Source: an uncultured Eubacteriales bacterium | GTDB lineage: Bacteria; Acidobacteriota; Aminicenantia; Aminicenantales; Aminicenantaceae | NCBI GenBank assembly: GCA_964584935.1 | Contig: CAZPBN010000012.1 | Location: 17,094 to 81,093 of the forward strand | Direction of reading: 5' to 3' | DNA: 64,000 nt | In this document: positions 4,355-63,420 of the stretch, piece by piece | Position numbering within the stretch: position 1 is the stretch's first letter | How the letters are laid out: every line of letters begins with the position of its first letter | Translations under genes and position numbers: made by a program | Notes under the pieces: model-generated | Seen by the model: only the letters and a program-made list of their open reading frames with translations | Databases searched by the model: none | What the model was told of the DNA's origin: nothing

Positions 4355-6100
4355 TTACTTCTCGCTTTTTTCATTCGATTCAGGGATTGGAAGCCTTATC
4401 TCGAACCTTGTCCCCTGTCCCACCTTGCTTTTCACATCTATGGATCCTCCGTGGGAAGTAACAATTCCATGAACCACAGGCAACCCCAGCCCTGTTCCTT
4501 TTCCAATCTCCTTGGTTGTAAAAAAGGGAATAAATATCTTTTTGACAATGCCTTCCTCCATACCAACACCTGTGTCCTCCACTATAAATGAAATGGTTTT
4601 CCCTGATGATTCTGTTTTTATGGTTAATTCTCCACCATTGGGCATAGCCTGTATGGCATTGACAGCGATGTTGACAAAAACCTGTGTCATTTGAGCTGGG
4701 TCGGCAGTGATGTCTGGTATATTTTGAGAAAAGTTGCGAATAATCTTTATTCCTTCTTTGGCACATCGCGATTCAAGAAAATAAAGGCTCTCTTCAACAA
4801 TTTGACTTAAACTCACTTGAGCTTTTTGAGGAGGCATCTGACGTGCAAACAGCATCAATTTCTTAACCACTTCTCGTGCATGCAGAGAGGCTTTCATAAT
4901 TTTTTCAGTATCTTTTTTCACTTGATCGGATAAATCAGGATATTTCTGAACAAGCTGGGCAAATCCAAGAATGCTCCCTATAGGCTCATTCAATTCATGG
5001 GCTACTCCTGCAGATAATTGACCGATCGTAGCTAACCGGTCTGCATGCCTCAGCTGCTCTTGAAGTTTTTCTTTATCATGTTCTGTTTGCTTCCGTTCAA
5101 TAATCAAAGCCACCTCTTTAGCAACTGTATCAATTAAATTGCGCTCTTCTTTGAGAAAAGGGCCTTCGTCAAGCTCCGGTTTTTTTTCTGAATAAATCAC
5201 TTCAACGGTACCCCGCTCGCAATCACTAACAATAATACTCACCCTCTGTCTATGAACCCCATTTTGAAAATCATCAGTTAAGTAAGACTTTTGATCCACA
5301 GTAATTCTAGCTGAAGTGATCTCAGGATACAGCCAGGCTGGAGGAAGAAGCTGTGCAATTCCTTGAAGAATTTCTTCCAAGGAAAGGTCAGTCCGTTCCG
5401 CGAGCTTTGCAATACCATATAGACAGGTGAGTTCTTTAACCCTTTCGTTAAGCTCTACTTGAGCCCGCCGGTGAGCGGCAGCAATCCCTAAGGTCTGGAC
5501 AACATCCTCACAAAATAACACATCTTTTTTTTGGAAAGAATCAGGGGGCTTATTTTTTAATTGGAGCAATCCAATGTTTTCATTCTCCACGACAATCGGG
5601 ACCACAACTAAAGACCTGTAATTTTCAAACTTCATGGATTGGATCGAAGATACTCCCGAAATTTGTTTGGACAGAAAAGCAAGTGTTTTTTCAGTATGGT
5701 TTGTCCAAAAACTTCCATTGTCTGTTATAAAAGGCAAAGAAGAATCATATTGCTTAAGAAGAATATTCAAGCATAACTGATCCAGAGAAGAGTCTTTTTT
5801 CAATCCAGGTATATAGTGACCATTTCTATCTTTCACAACAGGAACAATTTCAAAGCGGAAAGACTGTTTTTTAGAACGCCTCATTTCACTTCGGTAATAC
5901 TTCCCCCGCTCCTTCAGCCACATCTCTACGGAATCACACCCACAAAATTCCAAGATAATTCTGGAAGTTTCTTTTAAAAAATCGATCCTCAGAAAGCCAT
6001 GAAAGGCAAGATGCATGATTTGATCTGAAACATTTCGGAAATCTTTAAGCTCATGGGGCGGGGCAAATTCTCTATTGGATTTCTTTGATGTCTTCGTCAT
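4355..6100 (-). CDS. Cytoplasmic sensor histidine kinase with N-terminal GAF-type sensor domains
   Basis: 581 aa, no TM segment, H-box HELNEPIGSILGFAQL, HATPase_c motifs (DTGVGM, GKGTGLGL). The stop is 3 nt from the regulator start, so the pair is probably an operon. Confidence 0.8.
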   Translation of the reverse strand: MTKTSKKSNREFAPPHELKDFRNVSDQIMHLAFHGFLRIDFLKETSRIILEFCGCDSVEMWLKERGKYYRSEMRRSKKQSFRFEIVPVVKDRNGHYIPGLKKDSSLDQLCLNILLKQYDSSLPFITDNGSFWTNHTEKTLAFLSKQISGVSSIQSMKFENYRSLVVVPIVVENENIGLLQLKNKPPDSFQKKDVLFCEDVVQTLGIAAAHRRAQVELNERVKELTCLYGIAKLAERTDLSLEEILQGIAQLLPPAWLYPEITSARITVDQKSYLTDDFQNGVHRQRVSIIVSDCERGTVEVIYSEKKPELDEGPFLKEERNLIDTVAKEVALIIERKQTEHDKEKLQEQLRHADRLATIGQLSAGVAHELNEPIGSILGFAQLVQKYPDLSDQVKKDTEKIMKASLHAREVVKKLMLFARQMPPQKAQVSLSQIVEESLYFLESRCAKEGIKIIRNFSQNIPDITADPAQMTQVFVNIAVNAIQAMPNGGELTIKTESSGKTISFIVEDTGVGMEEGIVKKIFIPFFTTKEIGKGTGLGLPVVHGIVTSHGGSIDVKSKVGQGTRFEIRLPIPESNEKSEK

Positions 6101-57934: not shown

Positions 57935-58930
57935 ATGAAGGGCGAAGAAATATTTGAGAAATTGAATCTAAAGAAAGAAGACTTTGATGATTTGCATATC
58001 ACCAGGAATTTTTCTTCATTTGTTGCCGTGTCTCACGGTGAAATCATTCAAATGACAGATCCAATATTAACCCATTGTCCTTTATTTTCCAGGCTGTACA
58101 AAGGGAATCCGGGAGAAAAGAAAAAGGAAATTAGGAAAAGTATAAAAATGGCAGTGGAAAGTAAAATAAAAGAGTTTGGATCATTTACGGAAATACGAAA
58201 ACTTAAGCAGACTAAAATAGCTGTTCCCTATGGGGCATCAGAAATGATGATGTATGCGATTCGAAAAGGCTTTATAGAGGCAGCTCTTTCTGTGTGTGAT
58301 GGAGCCGGAAGCGTGATAACAGATTATCCGGCTTTAGTTCAGGGAATCGGAGCCCGAATGAATGGTCTGTTCTATACCACTCCTGTGAAGAAAATTATCG
58401 ATACCATTAGGAAAAACAGAGGGATTGTGGTCTTTCCAGACAACGCGGAGATTAACCAGGTTTTGGCTTTAGAGCATGCTGCTAGGCAGGGATATAAAAG
58501 AATAGCGGTTACAATCAATGGTTTTACAGATGAAGACATATCAGAAATCAAACCGATTGAAGGAAAGTACGGGATAAAAACTGTTGTGATAGTGGTTTGT
58601 ACAACGGATATATTAAAAGCGAGGACAGAACATATTGCCCGTTATGCGGATGTTGTCTGGTCATGTGCCTCTAGGAATGTGAGGGAAATCATTGGTTCAA
58701 GATCGATTCTTCAGATCACAACTGGAATTCCGGTGTTTGTTTTAACGCCCAGAGGGATGGAATTTGTTTCATCTTATAGCAATCAACCACAGGTGTTTCG
58801 TGAATTAGACCTGAATCGCCAATACTTGATCTCAGGGTATGTGAGAGGGCGACAGATTAAAATGGGACATATGTCCACGTATCTTACTGAATCCCGGCTT
58901 CCCATTCGAAGCAATAAAGAACCAAAATAA
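57935..58930 (+). CDS. Conserved hypothetical protein
   Basis: 331 aa, alpha/beta-like pattern, no recognisable motif (no CxxxCxxC); divergent from the Memo-AMMECR1 gene. Confidence 0.4.
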   Translation: MKGEEIFEKLNLKKEDFDDLHITRNFSSFVAVSHGEIIQMTDPILTHCPLFSRLYKGNPGEKKKEIRKSIKMAVESKIKEFGSFTEIRKLKQTKIAVPYGASEMMMYAIRKGFIEAALSVCDGAGSVITDYPALVQGIGARMNGLFYTTPVKKIIDTIRKNRGIVVFPDNAEINQVLALEHAARQGYKRIAVTINGFTDEDISEIKPIEGKYGIKTVVIVVCTTDILKARTEHIARYADVVWSCASRNVREIIGSRSILQITTGIPVFVLTPRGMEFVSSYSNQPQVFRELDLNRQYLISGYVRGRQIKMGHMSTYLTESRLPIRSNKEPK

Positions 58931-59419
58931 GGATTATTATGGCAAACATTTGTATAGGGCATCAAATTATGACGTTTTTATTGACTTTTTTCCTGTTTTA
59001 GATTAAAAATATAAATGGAAGGTTCAGATGAAAAAGATACTTAAGCCTCTTTTTACTATATTAATTTTTGGATCCGCTTTTTTTATTGGATACTACTTAG
59101 GTGAAGAAAAATTAAAAACCAAGATACCTGATTTTCAAGAAGATGAACGTTAGGTAAAGAGATTTTCTGATTCATTAAAAGGGGGAATTTTCTATTTTTT
59201 TTTCATATTGGGGATTTTTTTACAAAAGCTTCCCCAAAAATTACTTTAGAATCTGTATAAATTATTACTAATCAATAAGTTAGTTAAATTTTAAAGTGAA
59301 AAACTAATTTTTTGGGGCCCCCTTGACAGCTCTCCCCCCATCATGAAGCTTCCCCCCTCATTTTTAAATTTCTCTTTAAACCTTAAGACATCGTTTATAA
59401 GAGAATTTGTTCTCTAAAA

Positions 59420-59645
59420 GAATAAGGGGTGGCGCGGCGAAGGGGCTCCCCACCCGCACCACAGTTCTTTGGAGGGGGAACAGCTTCGCTTTCCCCCTTC
59501 CAACGGTCGCTCCGCTCCCTGCCTTTCCTTCTCGAGCTTCGCTCTGCGACCAAGGAGACGTACCCCCTTGGATCCTACATGGATTTGTTTATAAACAAAT
59601 CCTATTGGCGAGGACGGATGGGGAAGAGCCGTGACAGGACCCCTT
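59420..59645. ncRNA. GC-rich, hairpin-dense island (candidate structured RNA of unknown class)
   Basis: About 60% GC within >70% AT intergenic DNA. Terminal pairing AAGGGGT (59423-59429) / ACCCCTT (59638-59644). Internal hairpins GGAGGGGGAA...TTCCCCCTTCC, CCAAGG...CCTTGG, and 22-nt palindrome GGATTTGTTTATAAACAAATCC. Confidence 0.3.
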
Positions 59646-59780
59646 AATGTTTGTTGCTTCTGATGTTTATAATAGAAATTTAAAAATTGAGGGAACTTCA
59701 CTCATCTTCCCTTTGTTGACTAATGAAAGGTGTGCGTTTATAATCAAAAACAAAGCATTTATTAGATTTAGAGGAATGAA

Positions 59781-60107
59781 ATGAATTTTGGATTATATGG
59801 AATTATCATTATTTTTGCCCTTTTTTTTATCATTTTAATGGTCAATCCTAAAATATCTTGTTTTGGGAAAAAGATTAAATCCCCGTTTTATCCTCTTTTA
59901 AGAAAAAAAAAGAAAAAAAAGAAAGAGACAAAAACACAAGATTACGGATTTAAACTAGTGGATGGGGAGGTAAAGCAGCACTCGAAGAAAAAGAAGCACC
60001 CGAAAGCGAATTTAGAAAAAGTTGAAGATTATGGACTTAACCTTAATGATGACAATGAAAAAAATCTTGCCGAAAATAAAAAAAATAAAGGAAAAAGAGA
60101 TTCCTAA
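59781..60107 (+). CDS. Small membrane protein with Lys-rich tail (hypothetical)
   Basis: One TM helix then KKKKKKKETK...; SD GAGGAAT upstream; contains A9 and A8 homopolymers. Confidence 0.35.
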   Translation: MNFGLYGIIIIFALFFIILMVNPKISCFGKKIKSPFYPLLRKKKKKKKETKTQDYGFKLVDGEVKQHSKKKKHPKANLEKVEDYGLNLNDDNEKNLAENKKNKGKRDS

Positions 60108-60807: not shown

Positions 60808-61663
60808 ATCCTATGCGAAAATAAACCTAGGGATAGAAGTCTCAGGGATAAGGAAGGATGGCTTTCACGAAGTCAAAACTTTACTTCAGACTATAGACTT
60901 GTATGATGTTTTAAATTTTTTGCCTATAGAGAAGGATTCAATTGAATTAGCAGGAGATGATGTGTCCATATCTTGGGGAAAGGACAATCTGATATATAGG
61001 GCGGCTTCTCTTCTCAAAGAAAAACACAAGGTCTCTTTTGGGGTGAGAATCAAAGTCAAAAAAAACATTCCTTCGGGAAAAGGATTGGGAGGAGGAAGCA
61101 GCAACGCCGCAATCTCTCTTTTTGTTTTAAATGAATTGTGGGGGCTGAAACTCTCAAAGAGCGACTTGATGGGCTTAGGAAAAATTCTGGGCTCAGATAT
61201 TCCTTTTTTTCTTGAAGGAGGAGCGTGCCTTGGAGAGGGGCGTGGGGATGAGATCACTCCTTTGAATGATATGAATTTGTTTTTCTGTCTTTTAACAATG
61301 CCTGACTTTTCGATTATGACCAGGCAAGTTTATAAACGCTTTCAGTTTGACTTGACTTCAAAAGAGAAAGACAGTAAAATTATTCAGTTTCTGAATACAA
61401 AAGAAGCATTTTTTTTAGAGAACAGTTTAGAAGAAACAGTATTTAGTTTATTTCCTCAACTCAAAGCCATTAAGTGTCTTATTCAAAGTCAAGGAGCGGA
61501 TTTATCGCTGGTTACAGGAACAGGCTCAGCAGTATATGGTCTTTTTAAAGATAAGAAAAAGGCTCAAGATGCTCTCAAGGAAGTGGAAAAAAAGTATTCT
61601 TCATGCGTGGTGAAAACACTGGGCAGAGAGGAATACTGGAGGAAGGTAAAAGTTGGGGTGTAG
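60797..61663 (+). CDS. ispE: 4-diphosphocytidyl-2-C-methyl-D-erythritol kinase
   Basis: KINLGIEV, GHMP kinase motif PSGKGLGGGSSNAAI. Confidence 0.9.
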   Translation: MIARSYAKINLGIEVSGIRKDGFHEVKTLLQTIDLYDVLNFLPIEKDSIELAGDDVSISWGKDNLIYRAASLLKEKHKVSFGVRIKVKKNIPSGKGLGGGSSNAAISLFVLNELWGLKLSKSDLMGLGKILGSDIPFFLEGGACLGEGRGDEITPLNDMNLFFCLLTMPDFSIMTRQVYKRFQFDLTSKEKDSKIIQFLNTKEAFFLENSLEETVFSLFPQLKAIKCLIQSQGADLSLVTGTGSAVYGLFKDKKKAQDALKEVEKKYSSCVVKTLGREEYWRKVKVGV

Positions 61664-61725
61664 CCAAGTGGTAAGGCAGCGGACTTTGGCTCCGCTATTC
61701 GGGGGTTCGAATCCTCCCACCCCAG
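61654..61725 (+). tRNA. tRNA-Gln (anticodon UUG)
   Basis: Manual fold: acceptor TGGGGTG/CACCCCA, D-arm GCCAAGTGGTAAGGC, anticodon stem GCGGA/TCCGC with loop CTTTGGC (UUG), T-arm GGGGG-TTCGAAT-CCTCC, discriminator G, CCA not encoded. Overlaps the ispE stop by 10 nt. Close to E. coli tRNA-Gln. Confidence 0.85.
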
Positions 61726-62721: not shown

Positions 62722-63420
62722 ATGGCTATCACAATTAAATGCGAAAAAAGAGACACTTTCGGCAAGAACGAATCTCGACGCTTGAGAAAAGAAGATAAGA
62801 TGCCTGGCATTTTTTATGGGAGAAATGAAAAAAATATTCCTCTTATTTTGGAAAAAGAGGATATATTTAAAGTATTGAAATCTGAAACAGGAGAAAATAC
62901 TATTTTTAAAATTTCTTTTGGGGATTCCGAAAAAAAGGATGTGATGATCAGAGAATTGCAAAGAGATCCAGTCACAGAGAAAGTTTTGCATGCAGACCTT
63001 GTCCATATCGCAATGGACCAAATAATCAGTATTTCTGTTCCTGTTGTGACAGAGGGAGAGGCTATTGGAGTGAAGAGTGAAGGAGGCTTTGTAGATTTTG
63101 TAACTCGAGAAGTGGATATAGAATGCCTTCCCAAGGATATTCCGGATCATATTAAAATAGATATAACAGACCTTCATGTTAATCAATCATTTAAAGTTGG
63201 GGATATGACTCCGCCGGTGGGAGTGAAAATCACAAGTGATCCGGATGAAATATTGATAAATGTATCACTTCCTCATGAAGAAGAGATTGAAGAAGAGGAA
63301 GTTGAAGAAGAACTTCTTGAAGGAGAAGAGGGCCCTGAGGTTATAGGAAAAGAAAAAGAAAAGGTTGAAGAAGAAGAAGAAAAAGAAGAGAAAGAAGGAA
63401 AAGGCGAAGAGAAGGAGTGA
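62722..63420 (+). CDS. rplY: 50S ribosomal protein L25 / general stress protein Ctc (long form with acidic tail)
   Basis: RDTFGKNESRRLRKEDKMPGIFYG N-terminus, Glu-rich C-terminal tail. Confidence 0.85.
   Translation: MAITIKCEKRDTFGKNESRRLRKEDKMPGIFYGRNEKNIPLILEKEDIFKVLKSETGENTIFKISFGDSEKKDVMIRELQRDPVTEKVLHADLVHIAMDQIISISVPVVTEGEAIGVKSEGGFVDFVTREVDIECLPKDIPDHIKIDITDLHVNQSFKVGDMTPPVGVKITSDPDEILINVSLPHEEEIEEEEVEEELLEGEEGPEVIGKEKEKVEEEEEKEEKEGKGEEKE

Follow-up and report, generated by a model that had tools for sequence, protein, structure and literature searches.

What is the short GC-rich island that interrupts an AT-rich intergenic spacer in the genome of an uncultured Aminicenantes bacterium? 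The 64-kb stretch of contig CAZPBN010000012.1 analysed here (the window) has its most GC-rich stretch at 59424-59645, an island that runs on the minus strand from one strand of a closing stem to the other (AAGGGGU...ACCCCUU), as seen in its sequence, composition and folding. In 100-nt bins over 59400-59550 the GC content is 0.56-0.62, against 0.22-0.30 in the flanks, and 59401-59600 is the top 200-nt GC bin of the entire window (0.545). An earlier reading made from the letters alone (hereafter the sequence-only reading) had correctly described a discrete GC-rich block in an AT-rich spacer, and had proposed it as a candidate structured RNA. [quoted passage not shown] It is neither a housekeeping RNA gene nor a member of a known RNA family. 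The family is probably a new one, in which an internal module of five helices, more conserved than the element's ends, folds at the RNA level.

A repeat family in Aminicenantes genomes

A spurious 95-amino-acid (aa) open reading frame (ORF) on the minus strand of the island has two database relatives, both in other metagenome-assembled genomes (MAGs) of Aminicenantaceae type and both between unrelated genes. The copy at locus L010 has a YHS-domain gene on one side and an acyl-CoA dehydrogenase gene on the other, and that at L011 lies upstream of a metallophosphoesterase gene. By BLASTN, L010 is 85% identical to the window minus strand over 451 nt (window 59257-59704), a match that takes in the AT-rich flanks and the flanking inverted repeat. 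Searching a collection of species-representative genomes for an exact 24-nt block that is invariant in the window, L010 and L011 copies yielded 69 loci, 67 of which are named either as Aminicenantes or by a placeholder; the other two are one 'Bacterium isolate' and L038 (see below). BLAST recovered the core in 69 of 69 loci, the exact pattern occurs 6-10 times per MAG in six MAGs, and for many of the loci a contig end is only tens of bases away. A second, independent pattern, drawn from another region of the element, was present in at least 120 metagenome contigs and had 0 matches in a viral contig collection. Finally, a covariance model (R1), built from 48 diverse copies with the window copy among its training rows, gave 117 matches in 100 metagenome loci, with GC contents of 0.52-0.72. 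The element is an abundant repeat family, of which at least 190 copies were seen. The sequence-only reading had itself named multiple genome-wide copies as the sign of a repeat or mobile element rather than of an RNA gene, and this is what the genomes of relatives contain.

Within the window itself, neither a repeat scan nor the covariance model found a second copy. Logan contigs from the source sample leave a gap between 59280 and 59660, which fits a repeat of ~59251-59689 if k = 31 (an assumed value) and would be indirect evidence of other copies in the window's own genome. No protein family recurs beside 71 or 169 copies of the element; the small clusters of shared flanking genes consist of housekeeping paralogues (ABC ATPases, epimerases, SDRs, TPR proteins, peptidases, transporters). 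The orientation of copies relative to their neighbours is random, upstream genes being on the same strand in 16 cases and the opposite strand in 13, and downstream genes in 27 and 28, respectively.

At orthologous sites the island is absent. The closest relative available (L007) has a LolB-like protein 92% identical to that of the window, flanks that are ~97% identical, and the same genes for small proteins of 41 and 108 aa, and its spacer measures 217 nt as opposed to 627 nt in the window. Identity between the two ends at 59217 and restarts at ~59665, and the loss of the element in L007 was accompanied by no change to the neighbouring genes. In two more distant syntenic loci, L009 and L008, the latter from a complete Aminicenantes genome, the two small genes are retained together with their promoters, and no trace of the island is seen, also in a search with R1. 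Synteny was anchored on the LolB-like gene; anchoring on the DUF2099 gene of the window failed, as its homologues lie in other contexts.

Among the individual copies, L038 (DDKQ01000082.1, 4684-4873) is a diverged one, carried by a 13-kb contig in a MAG with the label Candidatus Subteraquimicrobium carltonvillense (Actinomycetota), and represents either a mis-binned Aminicenantes contig or a transfer outside the phylum. Close or tandem pairs of copies occur 410 nt apart in L142 (764-1345) and 640 nt apart in L146 (4280-5087), as well as in L162 and L169, and copies in inverted orientation stand at both ends of one contig (JAUWYH010000002.1, L014/L032). Such paired copies suggest clustering or nested insertion.

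Element ends and target-site duplications

Prokaryotic MITEs are typically <500 bp long, lack coding capacity, and have terminal inverted repeats of ~4-30 bp flanked by direct repeats that decay with age; they occur in many, mostly intergenic copies, give structured transcripts and are polymorphic for presence or absence, their transposase being supplied in trans by a related autonomous insertion sequence (PMC10969869). AT-richness is typical of them, but is not a requirement (PMC10969869). In the window, the island is enclosed by imperfect terminal inverted repeats of ~27-30 bp, with ~357 bp between their outer ends (59344-59700). The repeat that is 5' in the RNA sense, AGAAATTTAAAAATTGAGGGAACTTCA (59674-59700), is inverted with respect to the 3' one, TGAAGCTTCCCCCCTCATTTTTAAATTTCT (59344-59373); both are kept in L010. 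The whole repeated unit common to the window and L010, as delimited by BLASTN and the Logan breaks, is ~460 nt long (59245-59705, minus strand). The element has the size and the lack of coding capacity of a MITE (~357 bp between repeat ends, ~460 bp with L010, 487-511 bp in the related subfamily described below), has terminal inverted repeats in the window, in L010, in the subfamily with GGTTCTYTTCCATTTTGTGTGGG ends and in L157, and occurs in unrelated contexts with up to 10 exact-pattern matches per MAG.

The best evidence for the mode of insertion comes from a related subfamily (L030, L087, L135, L186, L021), whose members are ~490 bp long (487-511) with terminal inverted repeats GGTTCTYTTCCATTTTGTGTGGGTAA, the sequence GGTTCTYTTCCATTTTGTGTGGG, beginning GGTTCT, standing at both termini. 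When scored by anchoring on this known terminal motif, the 8-mers just outside the termini are identical in L030 (AATTTATT), L041 (ACCAAGAA) and L087 (TTTAAAAT), and agree at six of eight positions in L135. Overall, three of six independent insertions carry identical 8-mers, and 37 of 48 bases match, as against 14 of 48 in a displaced control; a prior automated survey had picked up internal repeats and was uninformative. A 310-bp derivative (L041 2806-3115, L180 7661-7970) has both terminal repeats and the perfect duplication ACCAAGAA, and no core, which means that the core is either dispensable for insertion or was deleted afterwards. Elsewhere the ends are spelled differently: GGAAGCATCTCC...GGAGATGCTTCC in L157, ATTTCC..CGTGAT in the JBKHJA MAG and TGAAGYTTCCC..TTTTTAAATTTCT in the window and L010. 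The end motifs that we took to mark the family are GGTTCTYTTCCATTTTGTGTGGG, GGAAGCATCYCCAWWTCCGTGAT and TGAAGYTTCCC..TTTTTAAATTTCT.

It is these related terminal inverted repeats, together with the 8-bp duplications of one subfamily and the lack of an adjoining transposase, that identify the element as non-autonomous and MITE-like. Its copies would be moved in trans, we infer, by a transposase encoded elsewhere, probably an enzyme of the DDE type making 8-bp staggered cuts. The insertion sequence families IS6, ISL3, IS1595 and IS1 make 8-bp duplications and have ends starting with GG. They are candidate parents, being like the subfamily in its GGTTCT ends and duplication length, and no transposase gene was found with these ends in the ~1.4 Mb of loci fetched. 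The end of IS257/IS431, GGTTCTGTTGCAAAGTT, presumably shares its first six bases with the subfamily ends.

The window subtype has an additional part. Outside the left inverted repeat lies an AT-rich extension (59245-59343) with a third repeat-like stretch (AAGTGAAAAACTAATTTTTT, 59297-59320), followed by the palindrome GGGGCCCCC and a TTGACA box, all conserved in L010. Given this homology the extension travels with the unit; it may be a nested or composite element, or the remnant of a second one.

A conserved core of compensating helices

Across subfamilies the termini and arms diverge, while a core of ~160 nt is kept and is more conserved than the ends. In the window it occupies 59467-59626 on the minus strand and matches model R1 from end to end (positions 1-169) at 139.7 bits (E = 1.6e-47, with the window sequence itself among the 48 training rows). 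In the minus-strand sense the core reads P1, UGGGG, P2 (CCARGGGGG-loop-CCCCYUGG), UCGCAG, P3, the joint GAGAAGGGGAGGCAGRGAG, an optional hairpin P4, CGANCGU and P5 (YGGAAGGGGG...CCCCCUCCR), with invariant joints GGUCGCAG, GAGAAGGGGAGGCAG and CGUYGGAAGGGGG.

The helices differ in how they vary. P1 (59581-59602, minus strand) corresponds, in the window, to the perfect palindrome of 22 nt, GGATTTGTTTATAAACAAATCC; at the same position, hairpins of unrelated sequence occur in other copies (CUGAUUUGUGG...CCACAAAUCAG, AACAUCGUU...AACGAUGUU, GUCCGGC...GCCGGAC). Because MAFFT misaligns P1 and P4, both were judged by eye, and P1 stands outside the pair statistics. P2 (59550-59571, minus strand; CCAAGGGGG-UACG-UCUCCUUGG in the RNA sense) has nine pairs, with 96-97% of cells paired, and includes exchanges of A-U to G-C and of G-C to A-U, G-U pairs being frequent on the minus strand. 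P3 (59534-59544, minus strand; GAGCGAAGCUC) is 10-24 nt long in other copies and exchanges pairs as well: its pair 113/132 is GC in 27 rows, AU in 16 and CG in two of alignment A4, and the corresponding pair of alignment A5 is GC in 67, AU in 32 and CG in five. Between P3 and P4 lies the purine-rich joint GAGAAGGAAAGGCAGGGAG (59515-59533, minus strand), whose family consensus GAGAAGGGGAGGCAGRGAG hardly varies among 43 genome copies chosen by another part of the element; the window deviates from it, with GGAAAGG instead of GGGGAGG. In the long hairpin P5 (59469-59503, minus strand; UUGGAAGGGGGAAAGCGAAGCUGUUCCCCCUCCAA) the outer pair is UA for CG in 19 of 43 rows and in 14 of 106 in a larger alignment, and the distal pairs show compensated variation in metagenome copies whose selection did not depend on P5.

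Beyond the core lies a 3' hairpin, GGUGCGGGUGGGGAGCCCCUUCGCCGCGCCACC, followed by CCUUAUUCUUUU (59428-59460, minus strand), which was read in the sequence and its fold, has a terminator-like look and is kept in L010. The island module with its closing stem also occurs in L010, L157, L093 and L062, and in L093 both sides of the stem have changed (GAUGGGU...ACCCAUC). One further candidate helix, GGUCGC/GCGACC enclosing P3-P4, was dropped because its partner position varies without compensation.

The sequence-only reading had proposed to look for covariation in relatives, and compensatory changes are indeed found. In the alignment of 48 diverse copies, 97.4% of cells form standard pairs and 14 pairs have changed on both sides, as against 5.9 ± 1.4 in shuffles (none of 500 reaching the observed value) and 0-9 in controls with slid partners. 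Among 113 distinct metagenome copies, fitted to model R1, 20 of 31 pairs have changed on both sides, as against 8.9 ± 1.6 (0/500) in shuffles and 5-10 in slid controls. On all five pair measures, and in both alignments, none of the 500 shuffles reaches the observed value, with the reservation that the copies are related, that the cells count sequences rather than independent events and that A5 was fitted to the model. The core helices are maintained by compensatory substitutions beyond chance, and selection appears to act on the internal, RNA-like fold and not on the transposon ends.

The features that the sequence-only reading had listed, including every hairpin, are all in the sequence, at coordinates that differ by at most 1 nt. 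They comprise the pairing ends (AAGGGGT at 59424-59430, ACCCCTT at 59639-59645), the palindrome that forms P1, the 9-mer AGCTTCGCT repeated at 59482-59490 and 59535-59543, and, upstream, the palindrome GGGGCCCCC at 59314-59322 and C6 tracts at 59334-59339 and 59352-59357.

DNA-level or RNA-level constraint

Is the fold selected in RNA, or do the hairpins act in DNA? Both strands of the island fold better than any of 200 dinucleotide shuffles, the plus strand to -95.6 kcal/mol (z = -4.0) and the minus strand to -101.1 kcal/mol (z = -3.3). Across the family, however, the strands are not equivalent. Read on the minus strand, P2, P3 and P5 contain 37 cells of GU or UG and nine of AC or CA (~4:1), and the minus sense of the core folds better than its antisense in 96 of 101 distinct copies, by 9.3 kcal/mol on average. 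As a constraint at the DNA level should be strand-symmetric, the G-U pairs and the folding asymmetry favour a fold selected at the RNA level on the minus strand of the window. The minus strand is G-rich, which inflates both the G-U count and the gap in folding energy, and the asymmetry is therefore supportive, not decisive. The probable RNA sense is thus the minus strand, and not the strand on which the sequence-only reading had described the island.

The strongest alternative is that the hairpins act at the DNA level only, as cruciforms, single-stranded DNA or palindromic binding sites in transposition or replication, much like repetitive extragenic palindromic (REP) sequences or the ends of IS200/IS605, with no functional RNA involved. 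That the element is a DNA repeat, with inverted repeats, is clear; both arms of P5 keep their sequence, as would suit a palindromic binding site; and GCGAAGC, an unusually stable DNA mini-hairpin, is present twice in the island. That both strands fold better than shuffles also speaks for this alternative, as does the negative outcome of the promoter and terminator scan (see below). It does not account for the ~4:1 excess of G-U over A-C on one strand of covarying helices, nor for the better folding of the sense strand in 96 of 101 copies, since a cruciform constraint should be symmetric. Furthermore, the invariant joints are purine-rich single strands and not palindromes, and the core-less derivative with its perfect duplication suggests that the core is not needed for insertion. 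We therefore regard a purely DNA-level role as unlikely, though it deserves more weight than the other alternatives discussed below.

If the RNA-level fold of the MITE-like element is real, we infer that the element is transcribed from the minus strand and, as a working guess, that it makes a stable small RNA, probably protein-binding, which would serve the element's own spread or control and not the host. A bolder proposal is that the ~160-nt five-helix core is functional structured RNA of a class not described before, carried through Aminicenantes genomes as MITE cargo. This is possible, but we would sooner bet against it than for it. Such a cargo might be a protein-binding or catalytic RNA needed by the element, for instance in transposase control or in the processing of read-through transcripts, or else an RNA co-opted by the host as a dispersed regulatory RNA family. 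Were it true, the element would be a bacterial counterpart of a short interspersed element (SINE) with a functional RNA core, and a tractable case of functional RNA dispersed by a bacterial MITE.

Evidence against the MITE-like reading

Several observations weigh against the MITE-like reading, or parts of it, in addition to the relatedness of the copies and the G-richness of the minus strand noted above. First, the window copy has no recognisable target-site duplication, because its flanking 8-mers, CCCCATCA and CTCATCTT, do not match. Second, homology to L010 runs ~90 nt past the left inverted repeat, so that the window subtype is possibly composite or nested, and its two copies do not fix its boundaries. 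Third, we read the differently spelled subfamily ends as related, and their assignment to one repeat family relies on short similarities. Fourth, no transposase gene with the family ends, and no autonomous partner, was found in the ~1.4 Mb of fetched loci, in which a search for the long-spaced inverted-repeat pairs that mark autonomous elements returned only MITE-sized pairs. Fifth, the AT-richness typical of MITEs is wanting, the core having a GC content of 0.55-0.62 (window average ~0.38) and being the most GC-rich segment of the window. Sixth, in L007 the right terminal repeat survives as a diverged relic, with an alignment score of 34 where shuffles give 14.1 ± 2.7, and the similarity of L007 to the element's left part (18) does not exceed that of shuffles (16.7 ± 3.0). 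Because of the relic, L007 is a deletion derivative, that is, a case of loss, and not a clean empty site beside a fresh insertion. Finally, the promoter and terminator scan found no sigma-70 promoter or terminator beside the island on the minus strand. The 3' hairpin with CCUUAUUCUUUU fails the criteria of that scan, and the corresponding hairpins of L157 and L093 are without a U-tract; TATAAT-like boxes lie 10-25 nt upstream of the closing stem in other subfamilies.

Host RNA genes and guide RNAs

A second alternative dispenses with transposition: the copies would be a host family of small-RNA genes, multiplied by duplication or recombination, with each copy an independent regulatory RNA gene. 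In its favour are the greater conservation of the core than of the ends, the compensatory changes, the -10-like boxes just upstream of the closing stem in several subfamilies and the hairpin with a U-rich tail in the window and L010 copies. Such a family would not be expected to have perfect 8-bp direct repeats exactly outside its termini in several independent copies, nor a core-less derivative with the same ends and a duplication. Copies also break assemblies in many MAGs, one was lost in the closest relative with its neighbour genes unchanged, and their orientation to neighbours is random. On balance we find this alternative improbable.

Still less probable, in our view, is that the element is a guide-type RNA orphaned from its protein gene, of the kind of the IS110 bridge RNA or the TnpB/IscB omega RNA. 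The likeness to such RNAs lies in the ~160-220 nt length, the multiple helices, the many copies and the association with mobile elements. No recombinase or nuclease gene adjoins the element in ~170 copies, the variable parts are compensating helices and not guide-carrying loops, and the Rfam models HEARO and IS605-orfB do not match. In addition, inverted repeats with an 8-bp duplication point elsewhere, being the signature of a cut- or nick-and-paste transposase and not of IS110 or IS200/IS605.

The interpretation of the sequence-only reading, a discrete cellular RNA, survives in part. The island is structured, as the compensatory base changes show, and the overlapping ORFs on it are non-coding, as had been claimed. 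Pfam has no match to those of 95, 75 and 72 aa, and they lack conservation as proteins, their only database 'homologues' being spurious ORFs called on other copies of the repeat. A small peptide of 17 aa in the window and 21 aa in L010, after a Shine-Dalgarno-like GGGGGG box, was also considered and was rejected for its lack of conservation. Nor did comparison with the 4227 families of Rfam (version 15), for the window copy and 12 other copies, assign the element to a known RNA. With gathering thresholds, the sole match in the whole window was tRNA-Gln (61654-61725). At E ≤ 10 with permissive filters over 59150-59800 the island drew only noise of 7-19 bits, and at E ≤ 1 the 12 other copies gave no match on the element itself. 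ARAGORN likewise found only the tRNA-Gln and no transfer-messenger RNA (tmRNA) in the window. These results bear out the statement that the island has no signature of tmRNA, RNase P, signal recognition particle (SRP) or 6S RNA, and extend it to every other Rfam family.

What does not stand is the discrete, single-locus RNA gene in a conserved spacer, as the island is absent in three syntenic relatives, occurs in many copies per genome and has terminal inverted repeats. Structured RNAs are found as GC-rich islands in AT-rich genomes, and folding z-scores of -3.3 to -4.0 in such a setting would suit a single-copy housekeeping or regulatory RNA missed by Rfam (a divergent 6S, SRP, RNase P or riboswitch leader), but for an element that is multi-copy, absent from syntenic relatives, associated with no downstream gene and without an Rfam match at E ≤ 10 we give that explanation almost no credence.

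As an aside, a long near-perfect hairpin beside the P1 side of the copy in L012 (791-889) gives spurious matches to the Rfam families mir-515 and mir-1994 on both strands.

Comparison with known elements

The families that the Aminicenantes element most resembles are Correia of Neisseria, QMITE1/2 of Coxiella, BOX/RUP/SPRITE of pneumococci and ERIC of enterobacteria. Like it, these are non-coding, intergenic and present in many copies of ~≤500 bp, have inverted repeats of ~25-30 bp, flanking direct repeats and deletion derivatives, and are predicted to give transcripts with very stable stem-loops, some copies bearing promoter-like boxes (PMC10969869). In contrast, AT-richness is usual among them and conservation is found in their inverted repeats, whereas the Aminicenantes element has a GC-rich core that surpasses its ends in cross-species conservation, with five compensating helices and invariant single-stranded joints. 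It has no sequence similarity to any of them.

A conserved RNA fold inside a transposable element is also known from the IS110 bridge RNA, the TnpB/IscB omega RNA/HEARO, the RNA of the IS200 5' untranslated region and the RNA-OUT of IS10. These RNAs are encoded next to or inside the transposase gene and act on it or together with it; the Aminicenantes element, by contrast, has no accompanying protein gene and no guide-like variable loops. Acido-1 and Acido-Lenti-1, Rfam motifs that came from comparative genomics, are similar in being lineage-restricted structured motifs supported by covariation, but neither these nor any other of the 4227 families match the window copy or the 12 other copies.

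Literature searches for repeats or MITEs of Aminicenantes found nothing. The element would thus be a new and abundant repeat family of an uncultured phylum, which could supply markers for strain-level variation and a route to its transposase. It explains the GC island as well as a class of contig breaks and of spurious 'hypothetical proteins' in Aminicenantes MAGs.

Neighbouring genes and other observations

In the window, the island is preceded by a Memo/AMMECR1 gene (minus strand), the DUF2099 gene (57935-58930) and the gene for a 41-aa membrane peptide (59028-59153). On its other side are a 108-aa Lys-rich membrane protein (59781-60107), a LolB-like gene, ispE, tRNA-Gln and prs. The promoter scan places a near-consensus promoter, TTGACT-17-TATAAT, at 59716-59744 for the 108-aa gene, whose ORF overlaps the LolB-like ORF by ~60 nt (60046-60107). 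Relatives among the Aminicenantes (L007, L008, L009) share with the window, in conserved order and upstream of the LolB-like gene and ispE, two genes for very small membrane proteins. One product has 41-44 aa; the other has 108-132 aa, a Lys-rich tail and no match in Pfam. Both genes carry a TTGACT-type promoter.

At 15-20 nt outside the element end that is closest to the neighbouring gene, the window (59699-59721) and L010 (~5900-5945) both have an outward-facing -35-like TTGAC(T/A), preceded in each by a similar CATCTT motif. In L008 and L009, the same promoter is present without the element. The element may prefer promoter-proximal targets, or this may be coincidence.

The DUF2099 gene ('methanogenesis marker 8'), which in the window stands between Memo/AMMECR1 and the 41-aa gene, is absent there in the syntenic loci L008 and L009; even its nearest homologues share just 63-65% identity with it and have unrelated neighbourhoods. 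The sequences of L007 and the window cease to match just upstream of the promoter of the 41-aa gene (~58963). Because of the differing placement of DUF2099 in relatives and this divergence of L007, the spacer around the DUF2099 and 41-aa genes appears to be a rearrangement hot spot. Finally, the repeat scan found 15-nt-periodic repeats of the GAAGAA type (family D1) at 63274-63399, a few hundred bases downstream of prs.

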